In this document: positions 320 through 19,136 of the stretch, one piece after another | Layout: every line of letters begins with the position of its first letter | Numbering within the stretch: position 1 is the first letter of the stretch | NCBI GenBank assembly: GCA_965215885.1 | Contig: CBDCEW010000024.1 | Span: 1 to 21,970, forward strand | Direction of reading: 5' to 3' | Source of the DNA: Candidatus Moanibacter sp. | GTDB lineage: Bacteria > Verrucomicrobiota > Verrucomicrobiia > Opitutales > UBA2987 | DNA: 21,970 nucleotides | Made by a program: the position numbers and the translations under genes | The notes under the pieces: model-generated | What the model was told of the DNA's origin: nothing | Database searches by the model: none | The model's input: only the letters and a program-made list of their open reading frames with translations

Positions 320-1849
320 TTATGCCGAAGCACGAAGGTAGGGCGCGAGACTGCTCCCTTCCGGAACGTAAAGATTGTCCAAAGTCAGCTCCTTGGGCGA
401 CCGGCAACCCGAAGATGTGAGCAGCTCGATAAACTCGTGTTCAAGATGCTCGACGTATTGCTTAACGCGAATCGCTTTTACCCCAATGACAAGGCCCTTC
501 TGAAGTTTCGGGTCGTGCGTCGTGATGCCCACCGGGCAGGTGTTGTTGCCGCACTGGAGCGCCTGAATACATCCCAGTGCGAGCATGAATCCACGTGCCG
601 TATAACAGGCGTCCGCTCCCAGACTCATTGCAACGAGCTGTTTCCCTGCGTTGATCAGTTTGCCGGCCGAGAGAAGCTTGAGTCTGTCGCGGACTCCTTC
701 CTCCAGGAGTATATTTTGGATACCCTGAAGGGCCGGATACAAAGGCACCCCGACATGATCCATAAACGCCTTCGGCGCCGCGCCCGTGCCCCCTTCAGAT
801 CCGTCGATAGAGATATAATCTGGGAAAATGTCCTGGCGCTTCATCTCCCTGACAAGCTCCCGAACTTCCTCAAACGATCCCACACACATTTTAATACCGA
901 CAGGAAGCCCGGAAACATCCTGAACCCGTTTAATAAATTGAACCGTACTGTTTTTGTCCGTGCACTCGACATGGTGCGGGGGCGAAATCACGTCTTTTCC
1001 CTTGGGCACACCCCGAAGTTCCGCGATTTCGTCGGTGATCTTCTCTTTCGGAAGAAGCCCGCCCTTTCCGGGTTTCGCCCCTTGAGAAAATTTGATCTCA
1101 ATCATCCGGACCTGTTCCTTGCTCGCCAGTGCCTTGAGGTCGTCCTCATTCAACGATGCATCGTCGTTGCGCACCCCGAACTTGGCCGTTCCCATCTGGA
1201 AGATCAAATCGACTCCCTCCTGCAAGTGGTACCTGGGACAGCCGCCCTCCCCGGTGTTCATCGGAATACCCGCCATTTTGGCGCCGCGCGCCAATGCGCG
1301 GACAGCAGGCTGACCCAGCGCACCGTAGCTCATCGCGCTGATGATGACCGGCTTTGTTATGGTAAAGGTATTCTCGATCCCGCGTTCCTCACCGAAAGTA
1401 ACCGAGAAGGGCTCCAGATTTTCTGTATCTACCGGGTAGAGGGAGTGCCTGAGCTTAATCTCCGTCGCATCAAAATTCTGTTGAGAACCGAAGGAGAAGG
1501 CCGAGTCGATGTTCAGGGCTTTTCGGTAGACCTCGCTTCGCTCTTCACGGTTGAAGGGACGCTCCTCCGTATCGCTGGCGAAGAGGTATTGCCGCAGCTC
1601 CGGCCCGATACTCTCAATCATGTAGCGTCCCTGGCCGAGAACACCAAAATTCCGCAGCAGTGTATGGTGGGTTTGGACGTGACGATAAAAGAAATTGATG
1701 ATGGTGAGAAAAATGAACGTCACCGTCAAAAAGTGGAAGTAGAAGGAGAGTTTGATTCCGGCCAAAAGGAACAAAACAGCGAGTATCGGAATCGCGAGGT
1801 TCGCAAATTTGGCCAGCTTATGGAGATCGATCTTTATTTTTGAGAACAT
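320..1849 (-). CDS. Stand-alone FMN-binding glutamate synthase family protein (YerD-like) with N-terminal membrane anchor
   Basis: Motifs SAMSYGALG, NTGEGG, IEIKFSQGAKPGKGGLLP, IDGSEGGTGAAP and the 3Fe-4S motif GCIQALQCGNNTCPVG. No amidotransferase domain is present; the N-terminus has two hydrophobic segments. Confidence 0.92.
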   Translation of the reverse strand: MFSKIKIDLHKLAKFANLAIPILAVLFLLAGIKLSFYFHFLTVTFIFLTIINFFYRHVQTHHTLLRNFGVLGQGRYMIESIGPELRQYLFASDTEERPFNREERSEVYRKALNIDSAFSFGSQQNFDATEIKLRHSLYPVDTENLEPFSVTFGEERGIENTFTITKPVIISAMSYGALGQPAVRALARGAKMAGIPMNTGEGGCPRYHLQEGVDLIFQMGTAKFGVRNDDASLNEDDLKALASKEQVRMIEIKFSQGAKPGKGGLLPKEKITDEIAELRGVPKGKDVISPPHHVECTDKNSTVQFIKRVQDVSGLPVGIKMCVGSFEEVRELVREMKRQDIFPDYISIDGSEGGTGAAPKAFMDHVGVPLYPALQGIQNILLEEGVRDRLKLLSAGKLINAGKQLVAMSLGADACYTARGFMLALGCIQALQCGNNTCPVGITTHDPKLQKGLVIGVKAIRVKQYVEHLEHEFIELLTSSGCRSPKELTLDNLYVPEGSSLAPYLRASA

Positions 1850-2165
1850 GATGAGAACAGTTGAACGGTTTTATAACTGAGACGAAGTTGGAAGCGATTC
1901 ATTACAGAGAAAATCGTATTCTTACTATAGAACCAATATAGCCCCCGGACGCCCTCAAAAAACATTAAGGACCAATTTCAAGCACGCAAGCCAAACGACA
2001 CATTAGTCCCTTTGAATGCACCGCGCTTGCTTCTCCGACTCCGCCCTGGCATCCTCCGGACCATGAAAGCGTTTCTCTGGGCCGGCCCTCACGGGTATGT
2101 GCCTTTGCTGCTCGAAAGCGATTTCCAATTAATTGCAAGGTAACAAAATTGGAAAGGAAAAACCG

Positions 2166-4223
2166 ATGCGATTAATGACCGGAGAGAACCTGTCAGAGAT
2201 TAAACGTCGCTGCGGGAACACTGACTTCACCCCAGCCTACGAAAGACTGAAAGAAGAGAGCGAAGGGTTTCTTTCGATCGATATGCCCCCTCCGGTTGAA
2301 CAGGCAGGCTTCTATCACAACTATTTTTGTCCGGAACATGCAATGGAATTGGTCTTCGATCCGAATAAACCCGAATCCCACCGATGTCCCAAGGACGGAC
2401 GGGTCTACTCGGGAGAACCCTATGACTCTGCCTGGCGCTGGTTCGTCAATAACCGCCTCTCCACCATGGCGTTCAAATTAGCCCTTATGTGGCGGATCGA
2501 TGGTAAAGAAGGATATTTGAATAGGGCAAAAGAGATCCTGGGCGGTTATGCCGATGCATATCCAGAGTATCCTTCGAGCCCGGATAAACCCTATGGCCGG
2601 GGAAGAGCAACCTTCCAATCTCTGGATGAAGCTGTCTGGCTGATCCCCCTGGTGCGAGCCTACGACCTGATCAGGGAGGGGATGGATACCGATTTCCAGC
2701 AAAAGGTGGAGGGCGATCTGTTACGAGCAGGGGCAGATCATATCCTTGGACAGAAGTACTTCAGGATCCACAATATCGAGTGCTGGCATAACGCTGCCAT
2801 TGGAGCAGTAGGTATCTGCCTTAAAGACTCCGAACTTATCCGCATTTCCAAAGAGGATGATTTCGGTTTTCACCATCTCTTGAACGAAGGCGTCCTGGAT
2901 GACGGTCTCTGGTGGGAGGGGTCTACCAGTTACCATTTTTATGCCCTGGCGGCACTGATGACATACGCACAAATCTCTGAGGGTGTCATTGGTTCCCTTA
3001 TCAGGGCCGAGCGCCTGGAGAAGATGTTTCGCGCCCCGATTGATTTAGCCTATCCTGATCTTAGACTGCCGGCAACAAACGATTGTTGGTTTTCCACCTC
3101 TCTCATAGGAAATGTCTGTCATGGAGTTCCTTCCGCCGCCGGAATCTATGAGGCAGCCTTCGGTTGGTACCGCGACCCCGTTTTCGCCTGGGTGCTCCAC
3201 CGGAATTACATCCACCACGAGCGAGATTCCTTAGAAGCCCTACTCTACGGACAAGTACTACCAGAGTCCGCCAATAAAACGTGTCTTAAAGGAAAGAACT
3301 TTACAGCATCCGGTTATGCCATTTTTCGTTCACAAAAGCCGGTGGAAAACGAAAATTACCTCCTGTTAAAGTACGGCCCCCATGGAGGCAGTCACGGCCA
3401 TCCGGACAAACTGAGCATCTTCTTCCATGCTTACGGCCATCCGCTTTCCCCCGACTTGGGCACCCCCGGATACGGTATCGATCTCAATAATTCATGGTAC
3501 CGGCAAACGCTAAGCCACAATACGGTAATTATAGACGGGCGATCTCAACCCGCCGTAGAGGGGAAGCTCGTCGCTTTCAATGACGGTATGGGGGAAGATT
3601 TCGGCGTCGCCGATGCAAGGGCCTCCTGGACGGAAGAGCCGTACCAAGGTGTTTCAATGCGGAGAACCATCCTTTGGGCCGAGGATTATTTCCTCGATTT
3701 TTTCCAGGTGGATTGCGATCGGGATCGTCAGATCGATTGGGTCTGCCGCTTCAGGGGGGAAAAAAGAGAGGAGGAAGGCCTGTCAAAAGAAGAACCGGTT
3801 AGACTCGAAGGCGACGGTTACAGTCACATCTTCCAACCCACAGGTTCAGTCTCGAATGGACCAGTTCGTCTCGGGTGGCGTATATCAGAAGGTGGCATAT
3901 CGATTTTCCTTCCCAACGAGGTGGGTTCGAAAACTATCCATGGTCGGGTGCCCTTTAACCCCTCTTCAGAAACGAGCGACATACTCATCCGCCGGCGCAA
4001 CTCTCAAAGGGCCACTTTCCTGGCTCTGCTACACCCCTGGGTGATAGAATCGGTCGTTGCCGACGTTAAACCGGTCGAGGCCGAACTTCCCGCGGGCGTA
4101 TGGGCGATACGGGTCAATTTGCCCAAAGAGGACCACATTTGGATCATTCATGAAAGAGATCTGGAGGGGGATTTTTCCGTTCCCACGTCAGGGTCAGAAC
4201 GTGTTTTCATCTATTCGCTCTAA
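2166..4223 (+). CDS. Heparinase II/III-family polysaccharide lyase (oligo-alginate lyase-like), no signal peptide
   Basis: Motifs HNIECWHNAA, GLWWEGSTSYHFY, LKYGPHGGSHGHPDKLS and DLGTPGYG...WYRQTLSHNTV. ATG 2166 follows an AAGGA RBS and is preferred over TTG 2133. Confidence 0.85.
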   Translation: MRLMTGENLSEIKRRCGNTDFTPAYERLKEESEGFLSIDMPPPVEQAGFYHNYFCPEHAMELVFDPNKPESHRCPKDGRVYSGEPYDSAWRWFVNNRLSTMAFKLALMWRIDGKEGYLNRAKEILGGYADAYPEYPSSPDKPYGRGRATFQSLDEAVWLIPLVRAYDLIREGMDTDFQQKVEGDLLRAGADHILGQKYFRIHNIECWHNAAIGAVGICLKDSELIRISKEDDFGFHHLLNEGVLDDGLWWEGSTSYHFYALAALMTYAQISEGVIGSLIRAERLEKMFRAPIDLAYPDLRLPATNDCWFSTSLIGNVCHGVPSAAGIYEAAFGWYRDPVFAWVLHRNYIHHERDSLEALLYGQVLPESANKTCLKGKNFTASGYAIFRSQKPVENENYLLLKYGPHGGSHGHPDKLSIFFHAYGHPLSPDLGTPGYGIDLNNSWYRQTLSHNTVIIDGRSQPAVEGKLVAFNDGMGEDFGVADARASWTEEPYQGVSMRRTILWAEDYFLDFFQVDCDRDRQIDWVCRFRGEKREEEGLSKEEPVRLEGDGYSHIFQPTGSVSNGPVRLGWRISEGGISIFLPNEVGSKTIHGRVPFNPSSETSDILIRRRNSQRATFLALLHPWVIESVVADVKPVEAELPAGVWAIRVNLPKEDHIWIIHERDLEGDFSVPTSGSERVFIYSL

Positions 4224-4388: not shown

Positions 4389-5477
4389 ATGAACGCATTC
4401 TTCTTCTGGGAAGAAGCCGCGGGCGGGCTAACGCTGGAGCACCGCTGCAATCCCTATGCCGGACTTTTAGCCCGGGCGCTGGAGAGACTGGATATCCATC
4501 TCGAGTTGGGGAGATACGCCTTCGAGCGAGAATGGTTGGAGAGCAACCGAAAGGAGTATGAGGTCCTCCACCTGAACTGGCCACACCATTTCTACAGAGC
4601 GGACGATCTCGAAACGACAATCAACCGCTATAGCAAATTTGCCGACAACCTGACATTTGCCCACCGTATAGGCTACCGCATAGTCTGGACCATGCACAAC
4701 CTCTATCCGCACGAGCGCCCCTTTCCCGAGGTTGATCATATGGGCAGACTACTGATCACACAAATTGCCGATGACGTTATCGCCCACTGCGATTACGCCG
4801 CCGATCTGGCGAGAAGGAAATTCTATCGCAGCCATAACCTCCACGTGATCCCGCACGGCAATTTCATCGATGCGTATCCCAACGAGGTCTCACGGGAGGA
4901 GGGGCGGAGAAAACTCGGTATTAGCGAGGAGGCGTTCGTCTATATCTTTTTCGGCAATGTTAGAGGCTACAAGGGAATTGAATCTCTGCTGGACGCCTTT
5001 TGTAAATTGAAGGACCCCGATGCCCTCCTGATTCTGATGATGCGCCAGTGGGGAAACGACGTATATATTCGCGAGATGGGAGAATTAGCCAGGCGGGACA
5101 AGCGTATCCGTGTCTTCACCTCGTCATATTTTCCAGACAAGGAGTTTCAGATCTATTTGAACAGCTCCGATGTCGCAGTGTTTCCATTCTCAGAGGTGCT
5201 GACTTCAGGATCGGCGATTACGGCGCTATCTTTCGGAAAACCGCTGATCCTGCCGAAGTTGGGTTGTATGGTGGAATTGATTGATGAAAATTCAGGCATA
5301 CTTTACGATCCGAAGGACGATCGCGGGTTGGAAAAAGCACTTGCCGAAATTCGCAATCATGATATTGAGGCTAACGGGCGCGAAGCATTTCAAATCGCTA
5401 AGAACCTGAATTGGGATAGTATAGCGTCACGTATAGCGGAGGTGTATAGGAGAAAATGGGAGGGTAATGATGGATGA
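4389..5477 (+). CDS. Glycosyltransferase family 4 (GT-B fold)
   Basis: Motifs VLHLNWP, VWTMHNLYPHE, VIPHG, FFGNVRGYKGIE and TSGSAITALSFGKPLI. GAGGT RBS upstream. Confidence 0.9.
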   Translation: MNAFFFWEEAAGGLTLEHRCNPYAGLLARALERLDIHLELGRYAFEREWLESNRKEYEVLHLNWPHHFYRADDLETTINRYSKFADNLTFAHRIGYRIVWTMHNLYPHERPFPEVDHMGRLLITQIADDVIAHCDYAADLARRKFYRSHNLHVIPHGNFIDAYPNEVSREEGRRKLGISEEAFVYIFFGNVRGYKGIESLLDAFCKLKDPDALLILMMRQWGNDVYIREMGELARRDKRIRVFTSSYFPDKEFQIYLNSSDVAVFPFSEVLTSGSAITALSFGKPLILPKLGCMVELIDENSGILYDPKDDRGLEKALAEIRNHDIEANGREAFQIAKNLNWDSIASRIAEVYRRKWEGNDG

Positions 5478-5486
5478 TCTACGGGG

Positions 5487-5527
5487 GCTAGGAATCTGTC
5501 GGACTTAGGGTCCGACAGATTCCTAGC
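5487..5527. repeat. Perfect 18-bp inverted repeat formed by two IS/MITE-type ends separated by 5 nt and flanked by CTAG; may also act as a bidirectional terminator
   Basis: GCTAGGAATCTGTCGGAC-ttagg-GTCCGACAGATTCCTAGC. The same end sequence recurs at 19209-19226 and, inverted, at 19291-19307 and 19540-19559. It lies between convergent genes. Confidence 0.85.
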
Positions 5528-5673
5528 TGATACTTCGCGAGAAATGCTCCGCCTCCTGGAAAGCCTCGCTAATCATGGCCGCCATATATTCAGGCCCGAT
5601 GCCGCCCTGCTCCAGGCGTAAAGTAGTTTCAGCGCTGCAGGAGCAGACTCTATGAGAAAAGGTTCAAACCATT

Positions 5674-8289
5674 TCAGACAATCCGCCGCTGACGAGCGTT
5701 CACCTCAAGGCAGTGGTGGAGTAAAGCAATCAATGAAAGGGGTTCCACGCCACAGGCACTGTTCCGCGCCCCGATCTCGAATGCGATGCGCCACTGCTCC
5801 ATGAGGGTTCGACAGCCATAAAAATAACTATTTCCTGGATCGTATATGTGCGTTGCCTCAGAAGTAATCCCATTCAGTTCAATGACCTTCAAATCGCGTC
5901 CTTCCTGAAGGGCTTCGGCCGAAGGAACCCGCATATCGTAGCGGCCAAAGAAGAACCCTTCATATTGTTTGCTGATCGCGTCTACGGCGTCAGTAAGCGC
6001 CGGCGTAAGAAGATGACCGCCATCGAGAAACAAGGAGCCACGGGAGTGCACACCGAGTTCGGTAATCTGAATATGCTCACCTCTTCCGGGTATCTCGAAG
6101 AGGCGTTCCCGATGCTGAAACAGAAAGAAGGGCGCCATACATACAGCGCGGTCATCTTCCAGAATAAGCTCTTCCAGCGTTTTCTCTCCATCACCGCGCA
6201 ATGACAGCAATCGCTTATCGGTGATGGAAAATATACGGCCTTTCTCTTCATCCGGGTAGCGGTAGTAGAAAATCCCATACTCTTCGCCAGAGATTTGCTC
6301 CTGCACGATCGTATCGACGACAGCCCGGTCAAAGAACCGTCTCGCTTCATCCGGTGATTGGACAATAGTTACGCCCAGACCCCGTTGTCCATCAACGGGT
6401 TTGAATACTACGGGATATTGGAGATCGTTATCATCTAGAAATCCCTCCACCTTCGCCATCTGCTCTTCCCTGTCGGAGTCGTATTCTACGGAAATCCATT
6501 GTGCCACTGAGTCTTCAGCTCCGGCTAACCCTGTCAGGATCCCAATTTTTCCTGTTCCCATAAAACCGCTTGCAGGCATTGTCGGATTCACTGCGGTGAA
6601 GAGCGTAAGGCAGCGGTTTCTGAGACCCAGAAAAAGTATATACAGAACAACAGGTGGATATATCGCCCAAATCGGCCAGAACTCCCAGCGCCTCTTACGT
6701 CGCCACTCCGACAAGAGGAGGCGCCGCCCGCGAAAAGAGAATTGTGGCGGGAGGATATTAAGCGCGATATAAAGCAAAAACCAAACGCCGGCCAGCAATT
6801 CGACGTTTGAAGCGTGGCGGTCGGAGAAATGTGCGAGGACCACAGTCCCGGCCAGCAGTGCGAGGAGCAGAGCAGCCGATCCCAAAGAAAACGTCGACAA
6901 TATCAACACGATAAAAAATCTCCAAAAACTGCAACGCAACTTCCCGGCCGCAAATAGGACTGAGAGACGGGAGCCGTGATAGAGGGGTGTTTTGAACAGG
7001 AAGAGAGCGCCGGATTGTTGGATCCACTTTTCACTCACTTCCACCAATCGTTCGCAGACCATGGATCGAAACGGCCACCTTTGAAGGAGCGAAGCGACAT
7101 CCCACCGTCCGCAGAAAAAGAAAAGCAGTTCCACCGTCAGGATACCAAAAATGGAAGCCATTAAAGCTGCCGGTAGTTCCAATACACTATTTGCTACCAA
7201 CAGGCCGGCCGCCACAGCTGCGGCGATCGGAGATATCCAGGCGACAAAGAAAATCAAGGTAACTGCGACGAGAAACGCAAAGGCTCCCGCTGAGGGTATA
7301 TTTCCATAATCAAAAGGTTGATCGGCAGTTTTTATTCGAATTGGATCGGCTTCCTCGCGAATTTTCGCCGTGCCGCTTTCGACTCTCTCTACAAAGGAGT
7401 CCATCGAATCGGCCATGAGTTGAGGTTCCGAAAAAATCAGCATGTGGGCTCCATCAAAAGTCACTAGCTCACTATGAGGAACGAGCCGGTGATGCTCGAG
7501 AGCTGCGGCATAAGGTACCAGCTTGTCCTCTATACCGTGAAGTATGAGCAACGGCGCTTTTATCTCCTTCAGAACCCTGCGAAGTGGCCTTAGATCCGAA
7601 TCGTGAAAATTGCGCGCATATGGAAGATCGAGCAAGGTGTGATCGAGAAGTCCAAAATGTGGAACTCCCTCTTGAATAAGCCACAATACACAAACCTGGG
7701 CCGCGAACAATAGACGGTTAATCCCGTAGTGACCGAAGAGCTCGAATTCGAGCAACCCATTCCCGGAACCCAGGATAATCGAGCTCACTCGAGCGGGTTC
7801 CAGATCCGCAACATTCAGAACAACGGCTCCTCCCCGGCTATATCCGAAAAAATGTGCTCTGTTGATCCCAAGATCTCCCAATAATCCGATAACGTACTTG
7901 GCATGCGTTCGGGCTTTATAATCATCCAATCGATAGGTTGACCCCCCAAAACCCGGTAAGTCGGGGATAATAACACGATATTTTTCACCAAGGAACGGGT
8001 AGAGCCCGTCTATAGATCTGGACGCCAGGGGGCTTCCATGAATAAGGACGATTACCGGTGGATCGGTTACTCCTTGAGGTGCCACATCCCGGTATGCGAT
8101 GGAAATGGGCCGATTGTCCTCGGCTTTCGCGTCAATTAGCGCGATTTCCGAAACACTCTGACCGGAACGGACTGGTCCTGAAGGAGAGGACAACCGGCGA
8201 ACTCCGTGGGAAGCGACTAAAATAGCAGCGTAAACCAGAATCACCCGTTTCCAGGTGAGACCTCGCGACATTCGTTTTCCGATAGCCAT
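5674..8289 (-). CDS. Fusion of alpha/beta hydrolase, DedA/VTT-like membrane domain and ATP-grasp (carboxylate-amine ligase-like) domain
   Basis: N-terminal hydrophobic anchor. Hydrolase motifs VLIHGS, PDLPGFGGS, GYSRGG (Ser151), HGIEDKLV and GAHM. Multi-TM segment at about aa 335-520 with RLSVLFAAGKLRCSFWRF. ATP-grasp motifs PVVFKPVDGQRGLGV, IVQEQISGEEYG, FGRYD and VIELNG. Confidence 0.85.
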   Translation of the reverse strand: MAIGKRMSRGLTWKRVILVYAAILVASHGVRRLSSPSGPVRSGQSVSEIALIDAKAEDNRPISIAYRDVAPQGVTDPPVIVLIHGSPLASRSIDGLYPFLGEKYRVIIPDLPGFGGSTYRLDDYKARTHAKYVIGLLGDLGINRAHFFGYSRGGAVVLNVADLEPARVSSIILGSGNGLLEFELFGHYGINRLLFAAQVCVLWLIQEGVPHFGLLDHTLLDLPYARNFHDSDLRPLRRVLKEIKAPLLILHGIEDKLVPYAAALEHHRLVPHSELVTFDGAHMLIFSEPQLMADSMDSFVERVESGTAKIREEADPIRIKTADQPFDYGNIPSAGAFAFLVAVTLIFFVAWISPIAAAVAAGLLVANSVLELPAALMASIFGILTVELLFFFCGRWDVASLLQRWPFRSMVCERLVEVSEKWIQQSGALFLFKTPLYHGSRLSVLFAAGKLRCSFWRFFIVLILSTFSLGSAALLLALLAGTVVLAHFSDRHASNVELLAGVWFLLYIALNILPPQFSFRGRRLLLSEWRRKRRWEFWPIWAIYPPVVLYILFLGLRNRCLTLFTAVNPTMPASGFMGTGKIGILTGLAGAEDSVAQWISVEYDSDREEQMAKVEGFLDDNDLQYPVVFKPVDGQRGLGVTIVQSPDEARRFFDRAVVDTIVQEQISGEEYGIFYYRYPDEEKGRIFSITDKRLLSLRGDGEKTLEELILEDDRAVCMAPFFLFQHRERLFEIPGRGEHIQITELGVHSRGSLFLDGGHLLTPALTDAVDAISKQYEGFFFGRYDMRVPSAEALQEGRDLKVIELNGITSEATHIYDPGNSYFYGCRTLMEQWRIAFEIGARNSACGVEPLSLIALLHHCLEVNARQRRIV

Positions 8290-8374
8290 TGCGACTCCCT
8301 GTAATTCAATGTCGACGGAGCTATTCCGAAATCGGGCGGCGGATCAAATCCCTCTATCCGGCAAATTATAGCTA
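8241..8374 (-). pseudogene. 3' part of IS-interrupted DinB-like gene
   Basis: With the IS removed, the frame continues IICRIEGFDPPPDFGIAPSTLNYRESQWLSENECREVSPGNG* (TGA at 8243-8241). FG(V/I)APST is a typical C-terminal motif of this DinB-like subfamily. Confidence 0.88.
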
Positions 8375-10291
8375 GACCTTATCCGAAAAGCTACTGATTG
8401 GCCGCAAAGAGGCGCAAAAGGCGCAAGAAAAACTTGAGAAAAATCATTTTTTGGCTTGATAAAAAGTGTCGCAACATGCTAGTGCTTAACAACCTAAGAT
8501 TAAGAAAGGAGTTAAACATGCCAACATGTGCGACAGAGGAGAACAAAAGCGATAAGACGCCCCTTAGCAACCTCATTCTGCCGGTTCCAGACACGGAGTT
8601 TCGTGATTTTCTGGATGAAGTTGAAGAATTGGCCGGGTTCGCGGCGCAAATCATCGAGGCGATCGAGAAGGATCTGGACGCCCATGCGCGTGAGAAGAAG
8701 AAACTTCGATTGGAAGATCGAAGGTTCTTTGAAGGGCGCACAGCGGAGCTGCCGGAGCTGGACATCGAGGAGGAGAATATTCTGGCTGCTGAATTGAATC
8801 TTGGGGCAGGCCGGCCGCGGATGCCGGCTTATGCGGTATACGTGTTCGTGATGATTCGAGGGTTTCTGGGTTCGTTGACCACGAAACCGGCACGGCGGTT
8901 TGTGCGCGAGTCGATGAGCTTGTACGGATTTTTGCAGAGCGGGGGACTGAGAATGCCGGCGGTGACGACGATTCTGGAGAACGTGAACCTGGTCAGCCAT
9001 ACGACCCGCGAGTTGATCTTTGATAAACAGATTGGGTTTATCCTCCAGGAGCAATGGGACGATTTCGGGAAGCTGACGATCGACAGCACCTCGGTGAAAG
9101 CAAACAGCTGCTGGCCCACCGATGGGAAGATTCTGAGCGGTCTTTTGATGCGGGCCAATCGTTTGGGTCAGAAGTTGCATGTCTTCGGGCTGGAGGATTT
9201 TCGCAAGGGATGGGTTGGGCGTTGGCTGGAGGAAATGGACAAGCTGGAGTTTCAGATTTGTCTGGCCGCGGGCAAACCGAAGTCGAAGGGCAAGCTGAAG
9301 AAACACTACCGGCGGTTGCTCAAGCGGGGCCGCAAGGCGGCCGACTCACTAACGGGGGAACTGAGCCATCTTGAAGAGGGCCTGTCGATGGATTCACTGC
9401 CTCCCACTCGCCGGGAGCTTCTGGAGCGGGCATTGAGCCAGATCAGGGGCGATATTGCCGACGCCAAGCGGGTTGTTGAGTATGCTCATGATCGGGTGTT
9501 TCACGAAAAGAAGCTACCGTCCACACAGAAGGTCCTGAGCCTCTCGGACGGATCGGCGGCCTACATCAAGAAGGGCAGCCGCAATCCAGTGATCGGGTAC
9601 AAGCCACAACTGGTTCGCAGCGAAAACGGTTTTGTCACCAGCCTGATCGTACCGCAAGGCAACGCGGCAGACTCCATTGAGCTGGCGCCGGCCATCGGCG
9701 ATTCGATCAAGCGCACCGGTGTCATTGCTGAACTGGTCAGCACCGATGACGGATATGCTTCGGCGAAGGGACGCAAGGAGGTGCTGAGCATGGGGGTAAA
9801 GCAGATCAGTATCAGTGGGGCGAAGGGCAAGAAGTTGACCACCCCCGAGGACTGGGAGAGCGAGGCGTATCGCGAGGCACGCCGCGATCGCTCCGCAGTG
9901 GAGTCGCTGATGTTCACGATTAAAGATGGATTTGCCTTTGGCGAACTCGGCCGCCGCGGCATCGATGCGGTAGGCGATGAACTGCTCGAGAAGGTTCTGG
10001 CCTACAACTTCTGCCGCATCATACTGATGAAGAAACGCCGAGGGGAGGAACTGGAACAGGCAGCCTGAATCTGACCGCTTTGAAGCTCAGAGAAAAAAGC
10101 ACCACGGGATGAGTATGCCTCCAGACAGCGGCAAATATACGTATTGTGCAGCAAGCCACGCCGATGGCCGCTCAATACCTGCTCATCGGCAGCGCCGGCA
10201 GCCTAAAACCCGAAACCTGCCAGCCATAGGCTGGTCCGCCCGTGGCGGAGAACCTTAAACCGCCCGCTCGAAAGGCTTTTCGAATGGGGTC
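8375..10291 (+). mobile_element. Insertion sequence, ISNCY/IS5-like DDE type, 1917 bp
   Basis: Terminal inverted repeats GACCTTATCCGAAAAGC / GACCCCATTCGAAAAGC (14/17). TAGCTA is duplicated at 8369-8374 and 10292-10297; it is palindromic, so the ends are ambiguous by 1-3 nt. One transposase ORF. Confidence 0.92.
8518..10068 (+). CDS. DDE transposase (ISNCY-like)
   Basis: Motifs TIDSTSVKANSCWPTD, STDDGYAS and RSAVESLMFTIK. ATG 8518 follows an AAGGAG RBS. Confidence 0.88.
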   Translation: MPTCATEENKSDKTPLSNLILPVPDTEFRDFLDEVEELAGFAAQIIEAIEKDLDAHAREKKKLRLEDRRFFEGRTAELPELDIEEENILAAELNLGAGRPRMPAYAVYVFVMIRGFLGSLTTKPARRFVRESMSLYGFLQSGGLRMPAVTTILENVNLVSHTTRELIFDKQIGFILQEQWDDFGKLTIDSTSVKANSCWPTDGKILSGLLMRANRLGQKLHVFGLEDFRKGWVGRWLEEMDKLEFQICLAAGKPKSKGKLKKHYRRLLKRGRKAADSLTGELSHLEEGLSMDSLPPTRRELLERALSQIRGDIADAKRVVEYAHDRVFHEKKLPSTQKVLSLSDGSAAYIKKGSRNPVIGYKPQLVRSENGFVTSLIVPQGNAADSIELAPAIGDSIKRTGVIAELVSTDDGYASAKGRKEVLSMGVKQISISGAKGKKLTTPEDWESEAYREARRDRSAVESLMFTIKDGFAFGELGRRGIDAVGDELLEKVLAYNFCRIILMKKRRGEELEQAA

Positions 10292-10718
10292 TAGCTATGA
10301 GAGCATAGTGATGAATTGAATGGCTAATCAGAAACTGAAGTTCGCGCCTTACCGTAGATTCACTCCAGGAATCGGCCGCATCTTCCATTCCGCTCTCCAA
10401 TTTAACCTGTACCGGTCTATCGAGGTCAATCTCGTTGATCGTTTTCAACCGGTCCAGGATTCCCAACATTATTTCTGAGGCAATGGTACGATCGAATTCG
10501 ATGCTCGGATCCCGCTTTCGGTCGTCGTAATCGATTCTCCCCGTTTCATAACCATTGAGTAGACTTAGATAGTGGTCGATGTTGTGACGGATATGCTCAC
10601 CGATTCGGCCCTCGTAACAAGCTGCACAGGGTCGAATGTATAGATCCCCATCGAGTTCTTCGAGGAAACGCAGACACTGAAGGATGCAGTCGCAGTTTTC
10701 CTGGATGATGGGTTTCAT
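10292..10718 (-). pseudogene. 5' part (142 codons) of DinB/YfiT-like protein, interrupted by IS
   Basis: Motifs IGEHIRHNIDHY, IDYDDRKRD and RRELQFLISHSIHHYALIA. The last 29 aa of ORF 10203..10718 are read from IS sequence. Confidence 0.88.
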
Positions 10719-10735
10719 AATCAGAGGCTAGGCAT

Positions 10736-12643
10736 CTATGCGGTCACCAACGATCCTCGATTCCTCTTCGAGTGATACGTGATGAACTTTCCGTAGGCGC
10801 TCCGGCCTAGATATTTCCTGAGCAAGCGTGGATTCGACTTTGTCAGATCCACTACGATGAAACCGTCCAGCGCATCGCTGAACCCCTGGTCAATCCCGAA
10901 ACAGAGAATTACTCCGTTGAGCCGCAAATAATGCTTCAATAGTATCGGCACTCCCCTGTTGTCTCCCTCGAATTCGGATACGAGCGATGAGACATCCTCG
11001 AGTTCCGGAAGCGACGAGCCAAAGGCGATACTGCGAAGACTCTTCGGACGATTGAGCCGAGGAGGGACTCTCGCATGAATCAACTTCTGTAGCGTCGGGT
11101 GCAGACTGTTATGTCTGAGATACTCGAGCATCAGAATCTTCGACAATGGCCGATAGGTATCCGTCGTCATACACACGGCGCCAAAAAGAGTCTTATATTC
11201 CGGGAAACGCCCCACCAATTCTCCAATTCCCCTCCACAGGAGCGCTAGCAATCCCTTCTGTTTCTGATATTTTTCGGTGATAAAAGAGCGGCCCAATTCA
11301 ATCGCGGGATTAAGTTGCTCGAGCAGTCCCTTCCTGAATTCGAAGAGTGTATTACAATATAGACCTTCAACCCCGTATTCCTCTACAACCCGGTCGACGA
11401 AGCAAAGACGGTAGGCGCCGGCGATTTCGCAAGTCTCATTGTTCCACAAGAAGAGATGGTGGTAGATCGCGTCAAATCGGTCGATATCGCTCGGTTTTCC
11501 CGTTCCTTCATCAACAACTCGGAAAGTCTCTTCGCGCACTCTTCCAATCTCATGCAGAAGATTGGGAATCTGCTCTGCCTCGGCGTAATACACCGTGAAG
11601 ATACCCTTTTCCACGAGACGGCGCTCCTCGGGAAGCGCTTGGATGTCACCAATCAGGGCACTTGCCGGCATCCGCTGGCAGATCGGCTCCATTTTTGGTC
11701 TGGTCACCGAAAGAGGCCTTCTATGCATTTTCTCTTCCTTTTCGGAATCCCGCTCCCGGAGGAGGTAGGTATTCAGTCGCAGGAATTCGGAAAGCGCCTC
11801 TGCGGTATCGAACCGCCTCAGTCGCGCCGGCAGGATCGGCCTTCCGATCTTCACATGGAACGAGCACCCTCTTTTGTTCATCAATTCTCTCCCAAGAAAT
11901 GCCGTGCGTAATCTAGGGTGGAGTAGACTGAGCAGCTGAAACATCATGGTGTTCTTGCCTTCCAAATAGATCGGAACAACGCTGGCCCCGCTTCGCTGGA
12001 TCAAAGTCGCCGTATTCGGATTCCACTGCGGGTCCGTAACCATACGCTTTTTCAGATTGTAATGAGCAACCGTTCCGGCGGGGAAGGTACCAAGGCAATG
12101 TCCTTCTCTGAGCCAGCGTAAGACCTCTTTTAACGGCGCCACGTTCATTCTCGCTGCCCGTTTCGATCCAAAAGGATTCACTTCAATCGTCCACTCCTTC
12201 ATCTCCTCTACAGCCCCTAGGAGGTAATTTACCAGGAGTTTCGAATCGGCCCGAACGGAGGCGAGAATCGAACCGAGTATGATGCCGTCAATTCCTCCGC
12301 ACGGATGATTGGCTACACAAACCACGGGACCGTTTCTCGGGATTCTGGCAAGATCCCTTTCGGATACGACAAGGCGAACATTTCCCAAATTCAAGGCGTG
12401 ATCGAAAAAATTAGCACTGCGATCTCGATCATTCGCAAAGCGGCGGCTCACTTCCTCGTAACCATCATTGATCTCATCCACACAAAGCAGAAAATCGATT
12501 GGCCGCCCGACAAACCAGTAGGCCTGTCTGAGAATCGGACTTTTAATCGATCTTCGAAAATCGACAAGCTTCTCCGTGCCCGTTTTCGAGTGCGGGTTAT
12601 GAGACTGATCGCCTACTGATCGGGATTTGCAGAGCATGCTCAC
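10736..12643 (-). CDS. Bifunctional acyltransferase: N-terminal PlsC-type O-acyltransferase plus C-terminal GNAT (OlsB-type) N-acyltransferase; OlsF-like amino-lipid synthase
   Basis: Motifs VANHPCGGIDG (HxxxxD), FPAGTV, EIGRVREETFR..EGTGK..DIDRFD, IELGRSFI..YQ and GVPILLKHYLRLNG. The start may be ATG 12637. Confidence 0.88.
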   Translation of the reverse strand: MSMLCKSRSVGDQSHNPHSKTGTEKLVDFRRSIKSPILRQAYWFVGRPIDFLLCVDEINDGYEEVSRRFANDRDRSANFFDHALNLGNVRLVVSERDLARIPRNGPVVCVANHPCGGIDGIILGSILASVRADSKLLVNYLLGAVEEMKEWTIEVNPFGSKRAARMNVAPLKEVLRWLREGHCLGTFPAGTVAHYNLKKRMVTDPQWNPNTATLIQRSGASVVPIYLEGKNTMMFQLLSLLHPRLRTAFLGRELMNKRGCSFHVKIGRPILPARLRRFDTAEALSEFLRLNTYLLRERDSEKEEKMHRRPLSVTRPKMEPICQRMPASALIGDIQALPEERRLVEKGIFTVYYAEAEQIPNLLHEIGRVREETFRVVDEGTGKPSDIDRFDAIYHHLFLWNNETCEIAGAYRLCFVDRVVEEYGVEGLYCNTLFEFRKGLLEQLNPAIELGRSFITEKYQKQKGLLALLWRGIGELVGRFPEYKTLFGAVCMTTDTYRPLSKILMLEYLRHNSLHPTLQKLIHARVPPRLNRPKSLRSIAFGSSLPELEDVSSLVSEFEGDNRGVPILLKHYLRLNGVILCFGIDQGFSDALDGFIVVDLTKSNPRLLRKYLGRSAYGKFITYHSKRNRGSLVTA

Positions 12644-12703
12644 TTCGCAGTATTGGGAATCGCGTTTTTGCTACACCGCATTGGCGCTAACTTGAGAGGG
12701 TGG

Positions 12704-13150
12704 TTACTTCGGATCGGCTGGCAGCGGCGTTGATGAACGCCGAGGCTTGGATGGTGAGCCCTTCTCTAGCGGCAGGCCGTTCTTCCGCCATTCGCTTAAA
12801 TCGCCTTCAAGATGCCTCACTTTGACAAATCCGTTCTCTCGCAGAACGGCCTCGGCATGGGATGCCCGCACACCCCGCTCACAGTGGACAACGACTACCC
12901 TTTCCCTGAACTTTTCGATTTCGCCGATTCGTTTTACCACCTCGCTATGGGGAATATTTACTGCCCCGTGTATGTGCCCGCTCTTGTATTCCTCGGAACT
13001 TCGAACATCGAGAATGATTGGCGCTTGATCGCTTAGGATTCTCCGAAGCAGTTCTTTGGTGCCGACCGATGCAGTCTCCCCATCTGCCCATAACGCCGCT
13101 ACGAGGAGCGGGAACACGGGAAATATTGCAAGTTTTCGGTGGGTAAGCAT
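12704..13150 (-). CDS. Single-domain rhodanese with probable signal peptide (PspE-like)
   Basis: Motifs ILDVRSSEEYKSGHIHGAVNIP, active-site loop HCERGVRA and LEGDLSEW. Hydrophobic N-terminus ending ALWA. Confidence 0.9.
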   Translation of the reverse strand: MLTHRKLAIFPVFPLLVAALWADGETASVGTKELLRRILSDQAPIILDVRSSEEYKSGHIHGAVNIPHSEVVKRIGEIEKFRERVVVVHCERGVRASHAEAVLRENGFVKVRHLEGDLSEWRKNGLPLEKGSPSKPRRSSTPLPADPK

Positions 13151-13312
13151 GAGACTCTTCGATCAACAAGTCACGGAGACCGATTATCGAAGAGGTGTAT
13201 ACCAACACGCAACCCGAAATGGCAAGTAACCAGCGAATTCGCCACAATTTCTCCGTTTACCAAGGCAGGATTCATCAGTCGACAAAGTTTCCGACAATGC
13301 TTACGACGAAGT

Positions 13313-14470
13313 ATGGGAATGGCAACCGGATCGGGCAAACGCTGCGACGTAGCTGTGATCGGCGCGGGGATCAACGGGCTTTGTGCCGTCTTTCATCTGT
13401 TAAGGCGAGGTGTTTCCCGGGTTGCCCTCATCGAGCAATTCGACCTGGGGCACACCCGAGGAAGTTCTCACGGCCAAAGCCGCATTACGCGAAGCGCCTA
13501 CATCAACAAAGATTACGTCCATCTCATGCAGGTGGCCCACAAGGAGGAATGGCCTCGACTGGAACGGGACTTGAAGGCGTGCCTCATCCACCGAATTGAC
13601 GGCTGTTATTATGGCCCGGCGGGCGGCACATACGACAGCTACGCTGCTTCCGTCGCACAGGTTGGCCTGGACGTGGAAGAAGTGACCGCCGAAGAGGCGA
13701 GAAGAAGCTATCCCCAGTTCCAGTTTCCCGATTCCACCGGTGTCCTCATCGACCGAACGGGAGGCTTCATCGCGGCGGCTGAAGCCGTTCGGTGTCTCTC
13801 CGACCTGGCCCGTCGAAAGGTGGACATCCTGGAGCGATGTCGCGTCCGGTCGATCGACCCTGGTACTAATTTCGTCCGGATCAACACCGACGCCGGCTTT
13901 GTCGACGCCGACCGCCTCATCGTCGCCGCCGGGCCCTGGGCAGCCCGCCTGATTCCCGCCCTGTCGGCCCGGCTCACCGTCACCCGGCAGGTGGTCGGCT
14001 ACTTCGAGATGGAAGGCCTGCCCGGAGACTACGAGCCCGGCCCTTTTCCCGTGTGGGGCTACCTCGGCGGCCCCCAGAGCGTCACATTCTACGGGCTCCC
14101 ACGTTTCGGGAAGGATGGCATCAAGGTCGCACGTCACGTAACCGGCGGGCGCAGAGACGACCCCGACCGGGTACCGGCGGAATTTGAGCCGGACTGCATC
14201 GAAGATCTTCGGGATTTCGTGACGAAGCATTTCTCAATTCCGGCCCGGCGCCTGGTGCGGTTGGAGCACTGCCATTACACGAACACTCAGAGCGAAGATT
14301 TCATAGTCGATTTTCACCCCGACGACGACCGAATCGTAGTCGCGGCCGGTTTTTCGGGGCACGGATTCAAATTCGGTCCCGTAACCGGGCGCGTCCTCGC
14401 GTCCCTCTCCCTCGACGGCGAATCGGATCTGCCGGAATTCTCGATCGCCCGCGACAGGTTCCGGTTATAG
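13313..14470 (+). CDS. FAD-dependent N-methyl amino acid oxidase (monomeric sarcosine oxidase / SolA family)
   Basis: Motifs DVAVIGAGING, GSSHGQSRITR, CHYTNT (candidate covalent-FAD Cys) and GFSGHGFKFGP. True start is likely ATG 13313 or 13319, not 13139. Confidence 0.88.
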   Translation: MGMATGSGKRCDVAVIGAGINGLCAVFHLLRRGVSRVALIEQFDLGHTRGSSHGQSRITRSAYINKDYVHLMQVAHKEEWPRLERDLKACLIHRIDGCYYGPAGGTYDSYAASVAQVGLDVEEVTAEEARRSYPQFQFPDSTGVLIDRTGGFIAAAEAVRCLSDLARRKVDILERCRVRSIDPGTNFVRINTDAGFVDADRLIVAAGPWAARLIPALSARLTVTRQVVGYFEMEGLPGDYEPGPFPVWGYLGGPQSVTFYGLPRFGKDGIKVARHVTGGRRDDPDRVPAEFEPDCIEDLRDFVTKHFSIPARRLVRLEHCHYTNTQSEDFIVDFHPDDDRIVVAAGFSGHGFKFGPVTGRVLASLSLDGESDLPEFSIARDRFRL

Positions 14471-14548
14471 ACTACCGAGGATTCAATCCAGCAATCCTCG
14501 CCTGCCTCGGCACAGCGGAGCAACGACGGGTCGCAATCCCGCTGAGCG

Positions 14549-16154
14549 CATACGCGTAAACCTTATTTTCGCAACTTAGTCAGATTCAAAGACTTGCGAG
14601 GTATTTTGCGGCGGAGTATGAGGGTGTCTCTATCCTCGAGGTTCCACTCCATTTGTTCGCCCTTTTCTATTTGCTTCGTTTCGACCACAGCGGTGAGGAA
14701 ATTCGCAGTTGAGCGAGTGCATTTTGGCCGGGTTATCTTCTCTACTTTTACCGTCTACCCCATTTTTTTTCACTTTGGCAGCATTTTATACTGTACATTC
14801 GTTCATATATAGGATTTATCCTTCGGATGCAAAGTATAAAAAAAGCTGATTGTATCCGTCAAACCTTCCGTAAGTTGAACCTCACAGCCCTCGCTAAACA
14901 GAGTGGTTTTAGAGAGAGGAAATCGCGCAAGATCTCCCCTCTGAACTTTGTTTTGGCTTTGCTGGCGATGGCTTCTAAGGGGGCCTTGTCCCTTGGCAAA
15001 GAAGCCGAGCTTATTGGATTCTTAGCCAACCGCACCATTTCCAGACAAGCGGTCCAAAAGTGCGCCAAAAAAGCCACCGCTTTTATGACCTTAGTGCTCC
15101 TGAGGCTTTTAGAACTTAAAGCTTATGGGCCTGTGGGCAGAGCTGTTCCAAATTGCATGAGGAGCTTTGAACGGGTTCTCATTGCCGACAGCACTTCGAT
15201 TGGCTTGCCTAAGGTCCTGGCCCCCTTCTTCCCCGGAGCGTCCAATCAGACAGGCTCCAAACAGGCTCAACTGAAGATTCAGGCCTATTACGATCTGCGC
15301 AATGAATCCTTCGTTGACTTCAGCCTCAGTAGCTTCCGAAAAAACGATCAGGCTGCTTCCAAAGACATTCTCGCTCTCGCTCAACCCAACGACTTGATCC
15401 TGCGCGACTTAGGCTATTTTGTCCTCGATGTCTTTAAGCAACTCGATCAGCGCGGCTGCTTCTTTGTGAGTCGTTTGAAAACCGGCACTTGCCTTTTAGC
15501 CAACGAAGGCGATGAAGAGCTCGATCTACGCAAACTTTTACGTGGCCAAAAGCTTCTCGATATGCCCGTTCGGGTGGGTAAAAAAGCCAAGCTTCCGGTT
15601 CGTCTGATCGCCGTCAAACTCCCTCAGAAGGTGGCCCATAAACGCCGCCGCGAGCATAGACAAAACCGCGACAATAGACTTCGATATACCAGCCGCACCA
15701 GCTTCCTTCTCGGTTTCCAAATCTTTATTACAAACCTCCATCAGAAAGACTTTAGCCCTAAGCAGATTCTGAGCTTTTACGGGCTTCGCTGGCGCATCGA
15801 AATTTTCTTTAAGGCCTTTAAGCAACATCTTAATCTCGGTCAGGTCAAAGAGACTACTCCCTACCAGGTTGAGCTTCTTATCTACGCCCGTCTCATCCTC
15901 ATTACCCACTTACTCAACTTCGTCTATGGTCCCCTTAGACACTATTCGAATACCAGTTTGTCCTCTCCTCTGAGTATCCTTAAATTCTCCTACTGGTTTG
16001 GCTTCTTTGCTCCCTACTTCTTCATCCTCTCTCACATTCCCAAAGATCAGATCATCCCCCGATGGCTCAAACAAATCCCCAAACACTGCACCTATGAAAA
16101 GCGTTCTCGACTTGATTTCCTCTCTTGTTTCTTCTCCTTAGGTTAACGCAAATG
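14549..16154 (+). mobile_element. IS4-family insertion sequence, 1606 bp
   Basis: Ends CATACGCGTAAACCT / CATTTGCGTTAACCT (12/15). Flanks CGCTGAGCG (14540-14548) and CGCTCAGCG (16155-16163). The transposase stop lies in the right inverted repeat. Confidence 0.9.
14827..16146 (+). CDS. IS4-family transposase
   Basis: Motifs LIADST and LRDLGYF, plus the YREK signature YGLRWRIEIFFKAFK. Confidence 0.93.
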   Translation: MQSIKKADCIRQTFRKLNLTALAKQSGFRERKSRKISPLNFVLALLAMASKGALSLGKEAELIGFLANRTISRQAVQKCAKKATAFMTLVLLRLLELKAYGPVGRAVPNCMRSFERVLIADSTSIGLPKVLAPFFPGASNQTGSKQAQLKIQAYYDLRNESFVDFSLSSFRKNDQAASKDILALAQPNDLILRDLGYFVLDVFKQLDQRGCFFVSRLKTGTCLLANEGDEELDLRKLLRGQKLLDMPVRVGKKAKLPVRLIAVKLPQKVAHKRRREHRQNRDNRLRYTSRTSFLLGFQIFITNLHQKDFSPKQILSFYGLRWRIEIFFKAFKQHLNLGQVKETTPYQVELLIYARLILITHLLNFVYGPLRHYSNTSLSSPLSILKFSYWFGFFAPYFFILSHIPKDQIIPRWLKQIPKHCTYEKRSRLDFLSCFFSLG

Positions 16155-16381
16155 CGCTCAGCGGGACCCGAACCTTGTCGAAATATGCATCGGGACTGTA
16201 ATCGGCATCGAGTCCTGGCTTGCCGGCTAGCCGGGATTGAATGTAGAATTTTCGACGTTCAATTGATATCTTATCGATCTTCTCCCCATTCGATTTTGGA
16301 TCGCGGCCTGCCATGGGCTAGTCGAATGGATTATGAACCTCGACAGAAGATCGTATAGCTCCCCTTCTCCCATCGTGTTCC

Positions 16382-16760: not shown

Positions 16761-17582
16761 ATGAGTAGCCAAAACCGAAAAGGTCTCGTTTCGATCAATA
16801 CCTTGTTCGCGATGAAGAAGCGCAGCGAGAAATTCGCGGCGCTGACCGCCTACGACGCATGCTTCGCCGAGTTGATCAGCTCGGTCGGGATCGAGGTTTT
16901 GCTGGTGGGCGATTCCCTGGGAATGGTGCTCCAGGGACACGATAGCACGCTGCCTGTGAAGCTGGACGATATGGTCTACCACATGCACTGCGTCCGAGCC
17001 GGCAACCGCGGCAGCCTCATCATGGCCGACCTGCCCTTCATGAGCTATGCATCCGAAGGGCAATCGCTCGAAAGTGCAGCGGCATTGATGCGGGCTGGCG
17101 CGCACGTCGTCAAGCTGGAAGGCGGCGCCTGGCTCGCCGAGTCGACTCGCCTGCTGACCGAGCGGGGCATTCCGGTGTGCGCCCACATGGGTCTCACTCC
17201 GCAATCGATCAATCGCCTCGGCGGCTATCGCGTTCAAGGGCGAGATCCGGAGAAGGCCAGCGCCATGCTGGAGGAAGCGTTGATTCTGGAGGACTCGGGT
17301 GCCGTTATAATTCTGCTGGAATGCGTGCCGGTCGATCTGGGTCGCGAGATCACCGAGCGCCTCGACGTGCCGGTAATCGGCATCGGGGCCGGCCCTCATA
17401 CCGACGGCCAAATCATGGTGATGCACGACATGCTGGGCGTCACCCCCTCTTCGTTTCGCGTGCCGAAGTTCGTGAAGAATTTCATGGGGGAAAGCAAAGA
17501 GGGCGTGAAGGGGGCGTTCGAGGCTTACGCCAAAGCCGTTCACGAGGGCACGTTTCCAGCGCCAGAGCACTGTTTCACCTGA
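16761..17582 (+). CDS. panB: 3-methyl-2-oxobutanoate hydroxymethyltransferase
   Basis: Motifs LTAYD, LLVGDSLGM, ADLPFMSY, VKLEGG, HMGLTPQS and IGIGAG...DGQIMVMHDMLG. Confidence 0.97.
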   Translation: MSSQNRKGLVSINTLFAMKKRSEKFAALTAYDACFAELISSVGIEVLLVGDSLGMVLQGHDSTLPVKLDDMVYHMHCVRAGNRGSLIMADLPFMSYASEGQSLESAAALMRAGAHVVKLEGGAWLAESTRLLTERGIPVCAHMGLTPQSINRLGGYRVQGRDPEKASAMLEEALILEDSGAVIILLECVPVDLGREITERLDVPVIGIGAGPHTDGQIMVMHDMLGVTPSSFRVPKFVKNFMGESKEGVKGAFEAYAKAVHEGTFPAPEHCFT

Positions 17583-18427: not shown

Positions 18428-18600
18428 TGGCAACGGAGCTTGCTTTTTTCTGAAAATTCACAAAGGTGGTGTCTCTGGCTAGAAAACCAGTTCATTCCAG
18501 GCAAGGCAGGTCATCAGGTGAATTTCCTTATTCAGTGGTGATTTTAAACCCGGGGATCGGGTCCGGTCTGAGCGGAAGTATTAGCGAGAAAATCTAAGTA

Positions 18601-18990: not shown

Positions 18991-18995
18991 ACCCT

Positions 18996-19025
18996 AGCCC
19001 ATCCTCCACCAGCCCATCCTCCACC
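18996..19025. repeat. 15-bp tandem repeat, two exact copies
   Basis: AGCCCATCCTCCACC x2, followed by a degenerate third unit. Confidence 0.8.
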
Positions 19026-19057
19026 AGTCTTCCGCCCTCCCACGCTTGGAATTGCAA

Positions 19058-19073: not shown

Positions 19074-19136
19074 AGCTGTCAACAGGAAGTGGATATTCGG
19101 AGAGAATGATTACGGGGGATCGGATAATTTAGAAGA

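Follow-up and report, generated by a model that had tools for sequence, protein, structure and literature searches.

The window, by which we mean the whole stretch of DNA analysed here (21,970 nucleotides of contig CBDCEW010000024.1 from a Candidatus Moanibacter sp. genome), carries on its minus strand four co-oriented genes, which encode a rhodanese, a protein with fused PlsC and GNAT acyltransferase domains, a DinB-like protein and an 871-residue fusion of an alpha/beta hydrolase, a DedA/VTT membrane domain and an ATP-grasp ligase. As a first-pass annotation of this DNA had described, consecutive genes are separated by 60 nt (rhodanese and PlsC+GNAT) and 17 nt (PlsC+GNAT and DinB-like), and the DinB-like stop overlaps the fusion start once an insertion sequence (IS) is removed. 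The ligase belongs to a module that is present in many bacterial phyla and is linked to amino-lipid acyltransferases. The copy of this module in the window is broken and decaying: its DinB-like gene is split, its DedA domain is degenerate, and no NRDE/TANGO2 protein turned up in the genome, which is 90% complete. The features are as follows.

12704-13150, minus strand: rhodanese, single-domain, with a hydrophobic N-terminal segment and an active-site cysteine (PF00581, E=6e-20)
10736-12643, minus strand: PlsC+GNAT protein of OlsF architecture, 635 aa (Pfam and NCBIfam)
10292-10718, minus strand: 5' part of the DinB-like gene, with a His45/His133/His137 triad (DinB_2, E=1e-4)
8375-10291, plus strand: IS element of 1917 bp, with a DDE transposase at 8398-10068 (best model ISNCY, below cut-off)
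8241-8374, minus strand: 3' part of the DinB-like gene, its frame rejoined after removal of the IS
5674-8289, minus strand: whole fusion, 871 aa (hydrolase, DedA/VTT, ATP-grasp)
7360-8289, minus strand: fusion part 1, N-terminal hydrophobic anchor and alpha/beta hydrolase (Abhydrolase_1, E=3e-20)
6745-7300, minus strand: fusion part 2, DedA/VTT membrane domain (VTT, E=7e-4, below cut-off)
5674-6744, minus strand: fusion part 3, large-lid ATP-grasp (RimK-like ATP-grasp, E=1e-3)
2-289, minus strand: DoxX gene at the contig end, 5.4 kb downstream, of a subfamily that accompanies the module elsewhere

The IS lies within the DinB-like coding sequence, just past the third histidine and before a conserved C-terminal FG-x-A-x-ST motif, and is flanked by 6-bp direct repeats (8369-8374 and 10292-10297). 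Its removal in silico restores a DinB frame of 184 residues, with a stop at 8241 and a 49-nt overlap with the fusion start; in most relatives this junction is occupied by NRDE. Four of the 18 public runs listed, from three studies, were compared with the locus; no RNA run was among those listed. A contig of run X2 skips exactly from 8368 to 10292 (1923 bases), that is, the IS-free allele, and in runs X1, X3 and X5 contigs cross from flanking DNA into the IS. An assembly artefact is ruled out by the presence of both filled and empty alleles, and the insertion is therefore real and polymorphic. The genome shows a massive IS expansion: the same 1917-bp element occurs in 107 end-to-end copies in its 6.36 Mb, 65 of them with a 6-bp duplication; its matches amount to about 246 kb genome-wide, and TA-rich 6-bp targets are preferred. 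Scans of the locus for promoters and terminators stayed at chance level.

On comparison with 71 homologues, 22 of 35 family-conserved positions were found to be changed in the window DedA, the maximum in any homologue being nine; the window hydrolase has 2 of its 33 such positions changed and the ligase 5 of 86. Replaced residues include Glu354 (by Pro), Asp355 (by Ile), Asp387, Arg435 (by Pro) and Pro438, with Arg441 kept. Over this region the contigs of X2, where the IS is absent, each differ by only about one base, and the decay of DedA therefore predates the insertion. The genome's only gene for a YHS-domain (seleno)protein (G000:C73:16036-16416) is cut by another copy of the 1917-bp IS. 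Three relatives of the same family that carry the ligase have the arrangement DinB-NRDE-ligase, without fused DedA or hydrolase, so that loss of DedA may be a trend in this lineage. The first-pass annotation had mentioned neither the position of the IS within the DinB reading frame nor the degeneracy of DedA, and had overlooked both the broken state of this copy and the NRDE/TANGO2 protein as a core member. Being in decay, the window copy is a poor test object.

Domains of the fusion and its partners

In the model, which is confident (pLDDT, predicted local distance difference test, 91.5), the third part of the fusion is a cyanophycin-synthetase/GshAB-type large-lid ATP-grasp ligase that is predicted to be membrane-inserted. 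The closest relatives in the PDB, both by profile (E 1e-10) and by structure, are CphA1, CphA2 and GshAB, with ~17-20% identity and a TM-score of ~0.5. The ligase shares with the G domain of cyanophycin synthetase and with GshAB the large-lid fold and catalytic residues; unlike them it is fused to DedA and carries an N-terminal segment that inserts into the membrane, and no Mur-ligase or GshA domain was detected with Pfam (cyanophycin synthetase model TIGR02068, 25 bits against a cut-off of 850). The label 'D-Ala-D-Ala ligase' carried by some records is ruled out, as CphA and GshAB outrank Ddl by profile and by structure. Across the 71 full-length homologous fusions there is almost no variation in the residues presumed to bind ATP and metal, and the window copy keeps Lys581, Lys630, Arg783, Asp785, Glu804 and Asn806; the roles of these residues (two Lys, Arg-x-Asp, Glu-x-Asn) we take to be those of Ddl-type enzymes. 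At other family-conserved sites it departs (Glu579Thr, Ser580Gly, Asp632Val, Thr747Val). Upstream of the ligase domain, in fused and stand-alone forms alike, stands a WE(F/Y)WP motif (WEFWP in the window copy) followed by a hydrophobic helix, which together would point to a membrane substrate.

The ligase family comprises 1664 clusters at 50% identity (E up to 1e-30). Among the 120 matches listed, which are proteins of 196-627 aa only, Pfam labels gave no natural fusion of ligase and acyltransferase. A distant subfamily (L066, L067) occurs in Komagataeibacter, beside a methylase, and in Paracoccus denitrificans PD1222, where the neighbouring hydrolase and VTT are separate genes. Gluconobacter, which produces taurine lipid, shares its family with Komagataeibacter.

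The window hydrolase has a nucleophile elbow and an intact Ser151/Asp255/His282 triad, assigned from motifs and conservation. The triad is complete in 59 of the 71 homologous fusions and incomplete in 12; the Balneola and Pelagicoccus-type fusions (L003, L004, L006, L007, L013, L015) have lost it and kept DedA and ligase. Hydropathy and charge bias suggest a periplasmic hydrolase and a cytoplasmic ligase. In the DedA domain of all 71 fusions re-entrant helix 1 bears a Glu and an Asp, and re-entrant helix 2 bears two Arg; by these residues alone, without a tree, the family DedA would fall in the COG0586/UptA-like class. The class with such residues is thought to flip anionic lipid (bioRxiv 2023.01.04.522824).

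In the DinB-like family His45, His133 and His137 are invariant in 30 of 30 members. The model of an intact homologue (L009) is a DinB/YfiT bundle with TM-scores of 0.6-0.65 to DinB structures; its matches to the thiol S-transferases BstA and MST (Foldseek E 0.04-0.6, 10-12% identity) rank below uncharacterised DinB proteins.

The PlsC+GNAT protein, the only such gene found in its genome, matches PF19576/PF01553 (O-acyltransferase, with the HX5D motif present) and PF13444 (Pfam labels Acetyltransf_5 and Acyltransf_2). Its best NCBIfam match is OlsF (NF052615, E 6e-103), with 345 bits where the cut-off is 620; the GlsB (118 against 300) and GlsA (92 against 260) models are likewise below cut-off. 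The PlsC+GNAT architecture is shared with the OlsF, OlsB/OlsA and GlsB/GlsA synthases, and a specificity for ornithine is not established by such a score.

The conserved module and its acyltransferase partners

Profiles were built from the first 30 loci, which makes the remaining locus sets a fair test. These comprise the best 80 of 573 confirmed metagenome loci, examined within 7 kb of the ligase (2 kb for the hydrolase), and 30 loci with a stand-alone ligase, all from a sample of 301 genomes of the phylum of the Balneola record L007 (G042). In the metagenome loci DedA was found in 73, DinB in 43, hydrolase in 42, NRDE/TANGO2 in 40, an N-acyltransferase in 38 and an O-acyltransferase in 29, followed by DoxX (22), YHS (10) and a ferric-reductase-Rieske unit (9). 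The 23 loci with at least 5 kb upstream and at least 2 kb downstream gave DedA in 23, DinB in 18, N-acyltransferase in 18 and NRDE in 15. Near the 30 stand-alone ligases lie DinB (17), NRDE (14), YHS (13) and DoxX (11), and DedA is replaced beside the ligase by a LysE-type membrane protein (17 of 30, 14 of them directly adjacent; L217-L246), which Pfam confirmed in two of three tested. The core of the module is an ATP-grasp ligase, DinB, NRDE/TANGO2 and a transporter of the DedA (or LysE) type, with YHS, DoxX and the ferric-reductase-Rieske unit as accessories. The window DoxX itself is 40-57% identical to the DoxX of 6 of 30 ATP-grasp loci.

Some further observations concern these partners. 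The stand-alone LysE-type protein shows a weak similarity to Sap/SfLAP lipid-export proteins (E ~0.005), and a few stand-alone loci carry ECF (extracytoplasmic function) sigma, DM13 and AhpC genes. In several phyla a three-part accessory unit stands beside the module, made up of an 85-aa membrane protein, a ferric-reductase-Rieske fusion and a 260-aa protein without a Pfam match (L005:3063-5627, L008, L012, L017, L106, L161 and others). In the phylum of G041, 13 of 133 genomes are ligase carriers; two of these, the unpublished G172 and G175, were kept out of the fusion alignment and support no claim made here.

Hydrolase, NRDE or both were present in 56 of 58 well-flanked loci (20 with both, 18 with hydrolase only, 18 with NRDE only; L058 was dropped as a duplicate of L009), which suggests that the two may serve one shared need. 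The NRDE proteins of the module have a Met-Cys start and a preserved NRDE motif. Papers on TANGO2 reportedly deal with acyl-CoA binding and with heme trafficking (PMC11867700, PMC10470608). The Met-Cys and NRDE residues are those proposed to be catalytic in human TANGO2, a disease protein of function not known that is by structure a cysteine N-terminal nucleophile (Ntn) hydrolase (PMC13044924, excerpt).

The rhodanese is a chance neighbour and stands outside the conserved module. No rhodanese was found in any of 168 ATP-grasp loci or of 20 loci around relatives' OlsF-like genes, and the single-sequence model used for this search does detect two other rhodaneses of the same genome. We reject on these counts the place in the pathway that the first-pass annotation had given to the rhodanese, and the sulfur component that it had considered is left without support; DedA-rhodanese fusions, which exist in other systems (bioRxiv 2023.01.04.522824), were not seen here. 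Of the neighbours that it had proposed to look for across phyla, OlsF-like genes, DinB and, as an accessory, DoxX do recur with ATP-grasp.

A conserved linkage of the ATP-grasp/DinB/DedA set to amino-lipid acyltransferases is borne out by both adjacency and co-occurrence in genomes. An N-acyltransferase lies within 7 kb of the ligase in 38 of the 80 metagenome loci, or 18 of 23 where the flanks are complete, and in 15 of 30 genome loci. A PF13444 acyltransferase is encoded in 29 of 30 genomes with the ligase and in 24 of 161 without it (two samples pooled). Within the order of the window genome the match is found in 13 of 13 carriers versus 10 of 27 non-carriers, and within the phylum of G043 (an Acidobacteriaceae record; 151 genomes, drawn evenly) in 16 of 17 carriers, 12 of them with adjacent genes, versus 14 of 134 non-carriers. 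The DinB subfamily occurs only in ligase carriers, with 12 of 13 versus 0 of 27 in the order and 12 of 17 versus 0 of 134 in the G043 phylum. Such a nesting, of DinB within ligase and of ligase within acyltransferase, suggests the order in which the steps would be taken.

Homologous loci carry either OlsF-type or split OlsB/OlsA-type genes. In a tree of 77 rows, from a quick tree search only, the N-acyltransferases found beside the ligase form two deeply separate clades, OlsF-type and OlsB-type, each with 100% SH-aLRT support, and the link to the ligase is therefore not one inherited neighbourhood. Three cultured strains (Vibrio aquimaris THAF100, Vibrio THAF191d and Photobacterium GJ3) have the co-oriented run VTT-grasp-DinB-NRDE-YHS-DoxX-OlsF, with gaps of -17 to +23 nt in the two Vibrio, and in Variovorax the acyltransferase is directly downstream of the ligase.

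Candidate roles of the module

That the module tailors amino lipids is well supported by its context, if unproven. We would favour, with confidence somewhat short of even, a mechanism in which the ligase extends the free carboxyl of an N-acyl amino lipid, DedA moves the product and the hydrolase trims it. From what is known of their families, the GNAT and PlsC-type domains would first build an N-acyl or acyloxyacyl amino lipid. At the cytoplasmic face the ATP-grasp domain, for which fold and catalytic residues are in evidence, would then make an acyl-phosphate on the lipid carboxylate and ligate a second amine, probably an amino acid. The anionic product could next be carried across the inner membrane by DedA; the signature residues are seen in the homologues, and substrate and direction are our supposition. 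A periplasmic serine hydrolase or a cytoplasmic NRDE/TANGO2 cysteine hydrolase may trim or turn over the product in the manner of AcvB, which does so for LpiA, a synthase of MprF type. Least certain is the part of DinB, which might act on the product or the amine in a step that needs a metal. The scheme resembles the MprF/LpiA and AcvB systems, in which a synthase, a flippase and a periplasmic hydrolase are co-encoded and set the level of aminoacylated lipid (PMC13197417, excerpt); DedA is fused elsewhere to lipid-synthesis domains, including the MprF synthase, and can replace the MprF flippase domain (PMC10193950, excerpt). The likeness is one of analogy, for the Pfam and NCBIfam hits of the window contain no match to MprF or to the AcvB/VirJ family, and unlike MprF the ligase would use ATP-grasp amide chemistry, not ester transfer from aminoacyl-tRNA, on what is likely an amino lipid, not phosphatidylglycerol.

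Several points weigh against this mechanism. The acyltransferase is adjacent in none of 13 ligase-carrying relatives in the order of the window genome and in none of the 30 stand-alone loci of the G042 phylum, and within 8 kb there is none in the Salinivibrio, two Azospirillum, Paracoccus and Komagataeibacter records; in one ATP-grasp carrier (G542) a PF13444 match was not found. The sampled genomes are kin and not independent, many are incomplete, and Fisher p values overstate the association. DinB, YHS, DoxX and the ferric-reductase-Rieske unit would be superfluous for a simple ligation. The best-known dipeptide lipid, Gly-Ser, is made by an anaerobe, Bacteroides thetaiotaomicron (PMC8791184, excerpt), which sits badly with the bias of the ligase towards aerobes, and the control genome of this species gave no match to the TANGO2 family. 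From the indirect evidence of that bias and that control, it is unlikely that the family is the Bacteroides Gly-Ser (flavolipin) ligase. Finally, DedA residues of the UptA type, as in this family, are those of the proteins believed to recycle undecaprenyl phosphate by flipping it (bioRxiv 2023.01.04.522824), and this match favours a salvage role.

Salvage or head-group exchange is the main rival and fits the anatomy nearly as well, although we regard it as distinctly the less probable account. The hydrolase or NRDE would first cleave an existing amino lipid, DedA would flip the anionic remnant (acyloxyacyl acid or lyso lipid) to the inner side, and there the ATP-grasp would re-ligate it to the same or a different amine. 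Besides the acidic and basic DedA residues of the recycling class, it draws support from the predicted order of periplasmic hydrolase, DedA and cytoplasmic ligase, and from the 56 of 58 loci with hydrolase or NRDE, where about seven without either would be expected if the two were independent. Among the enzymes that TANGO2 resembles are acid ceramidase and NAAA, Ntn hydrolases that cleave amides (PMC13044924, excerpt), and the need for an N-acyltransferase in the genome is accounted for equally well. However, PetA, of the same DedA class, moves phosphatidylethanolamine outward (PMC10193950, excerpt), the hydrolase triad is incomplete in 12 of the 71 fusions, and 13 of the 30 stand-alone loci have no DinB and 16 no NRDE nearby.

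A soluble or redox pathway seems improbable to us. Here the product of the ATP-grasp, as of GshAB, would be a small peptide or thiol conjugate; DinB would transfer it, the YHS (seleno)protein, DoxX, DM13 and ferric-reductase-Rieske proteins would keep it reduced, and the acyltransferases would be co-regulated neighbours. GshAB is indeed among the top structural matches, the DinB model has the fold of the mycothiol and bacillithiol S-transferases, and the 30 stand-alone loci have YHS in 13, DoxX in 11, ECF sigma, DM13 and AhpC in a few and an adjacent N-acyltransferase in none. In the G042-phylum sample CoxA is present in 66 of 67 ligase carriers and just 1 of 80 CoxA-negative genomes carries the ligase, an association which may reflect phylogeny alone. 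Yet such a pathway leaves unexplained the membrane-inserting segment, the DedA fusion, the two independent acyltransferase partners and the nesting in N-acyltransferase-positive genomes (29 of 30), and DinB is absent from 6 of 30 ligase-carrying genomes.

Hardly probable at all is a de novo synthase, in which the ATP-grasp would couple an amino acid with a free 3-hydroxy fatty acid and the second acyl chain would be the work of the alpha/beta hydrolase, as OlsH and OlsI of Singulisphaera acidiphila make ornithine lipid with an ATP-dependent GH3-fold amide ligase and an alpha/beta-hydrolase O-acyltransferase (PMC12493201, excerpt): both kinds of activity are predicted in one fusion chain, but the GNAT N-acyltransferase found in 29 of 30 carriers, often adjacent, would be unnecessary, the hydrolase is missing from many loci (NRDE alone in 18 of 58), and OlsH, a GH3 adenylating enzyme, replaces OlsB/OlsF, whereas the ATP-grasp ligase coexists with OlsB/OlsF types.

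If the ligase does extend an amino lipid, a bolder form of the favoured mechanism can be imagined, which we hold to be a long shot. The fusion would be a tRNA-independent counterpart of MprF/AcvB for phosphorus-free lipids, with one chain that ligates, flips and trims a peptide-headed amino lipid, and DinB, through its three-His site, would be an iron enzyme that depends on O2 and is supplied by the ferric-reductase-Rieske unit. A need for O2 would account for the almost complete confinement of the ligase to aerobes (66 of 67). The peptide-headed product, if real, would represent a class of lipid not yet described, and one on which TANGO2-family hydrolases naturally act.

Known tailoring of ornithine lipids consists of hydroxylation, N-methylation and a taurine transfer without a gene; the excerpt of a 2026 review counts five modifications and gives the gene for the ATP-dependent taurine transferase, described in the 1970s, as not known (PMC12971839). 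The ligase family would be a direct candidate class for such missing carboxyl-extending enzymes. In the excerpt of a 2024 review ATP-grasp appears in a reference title alone (PMC11631085). The literature searched, which covered few subscription papers, gave no description of the module and no ATP-grasp, DedA, DinB or NRDE partner of amino-lipid synthases, and the likely attachment of a second amine by a membrane-bound, ATP-driven ligase is a route that it does not describe. The intact seven-gene run of the cultured Vibrio and Photobacterium makes the ligase family testable, and the module would supply a bacterial context for the TANGO2 substrate as well as a substrate for a DedA subfamily.

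Other elements of the window

The remaining genes lie in 320-4223, 4389-5477, 13139-14470 and 16761-21084. Among them are a flavin mononucleotide (FMN) glutamate-synthase-like protein, a heparinase II/III-like lyase, a GT4 glycosyltransferase, a sarcosine-oxidase-like flavoprotein, a class V aminotransferase and a pilin-like protein, with a transposase fragment at the contig end; panB/panC-like and RNA-binding reading frames are named from their translation alone. An IS4-family element (14537-16166) has 27-nt inverted repeats and an intact 439-aa transposase, and 31 near-full copies of it occur in the genome. Downstream of the fusion stands a perfect 18-bp hairpin (5485-5530), with similar arms at 19205-19227 and 19540-19559; the arms match 134 places in the genome, five of them across most of the length, and the hairpin may be an IS end or a repeat like the repetitive extragenic palindromic (REP) elements. 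A 171-bp element at 19309-19479, resembling a miniature inverted-repeat transposable element, has perfect 23-nt terminal inverted repeats and 17 near-full copies in the genome.

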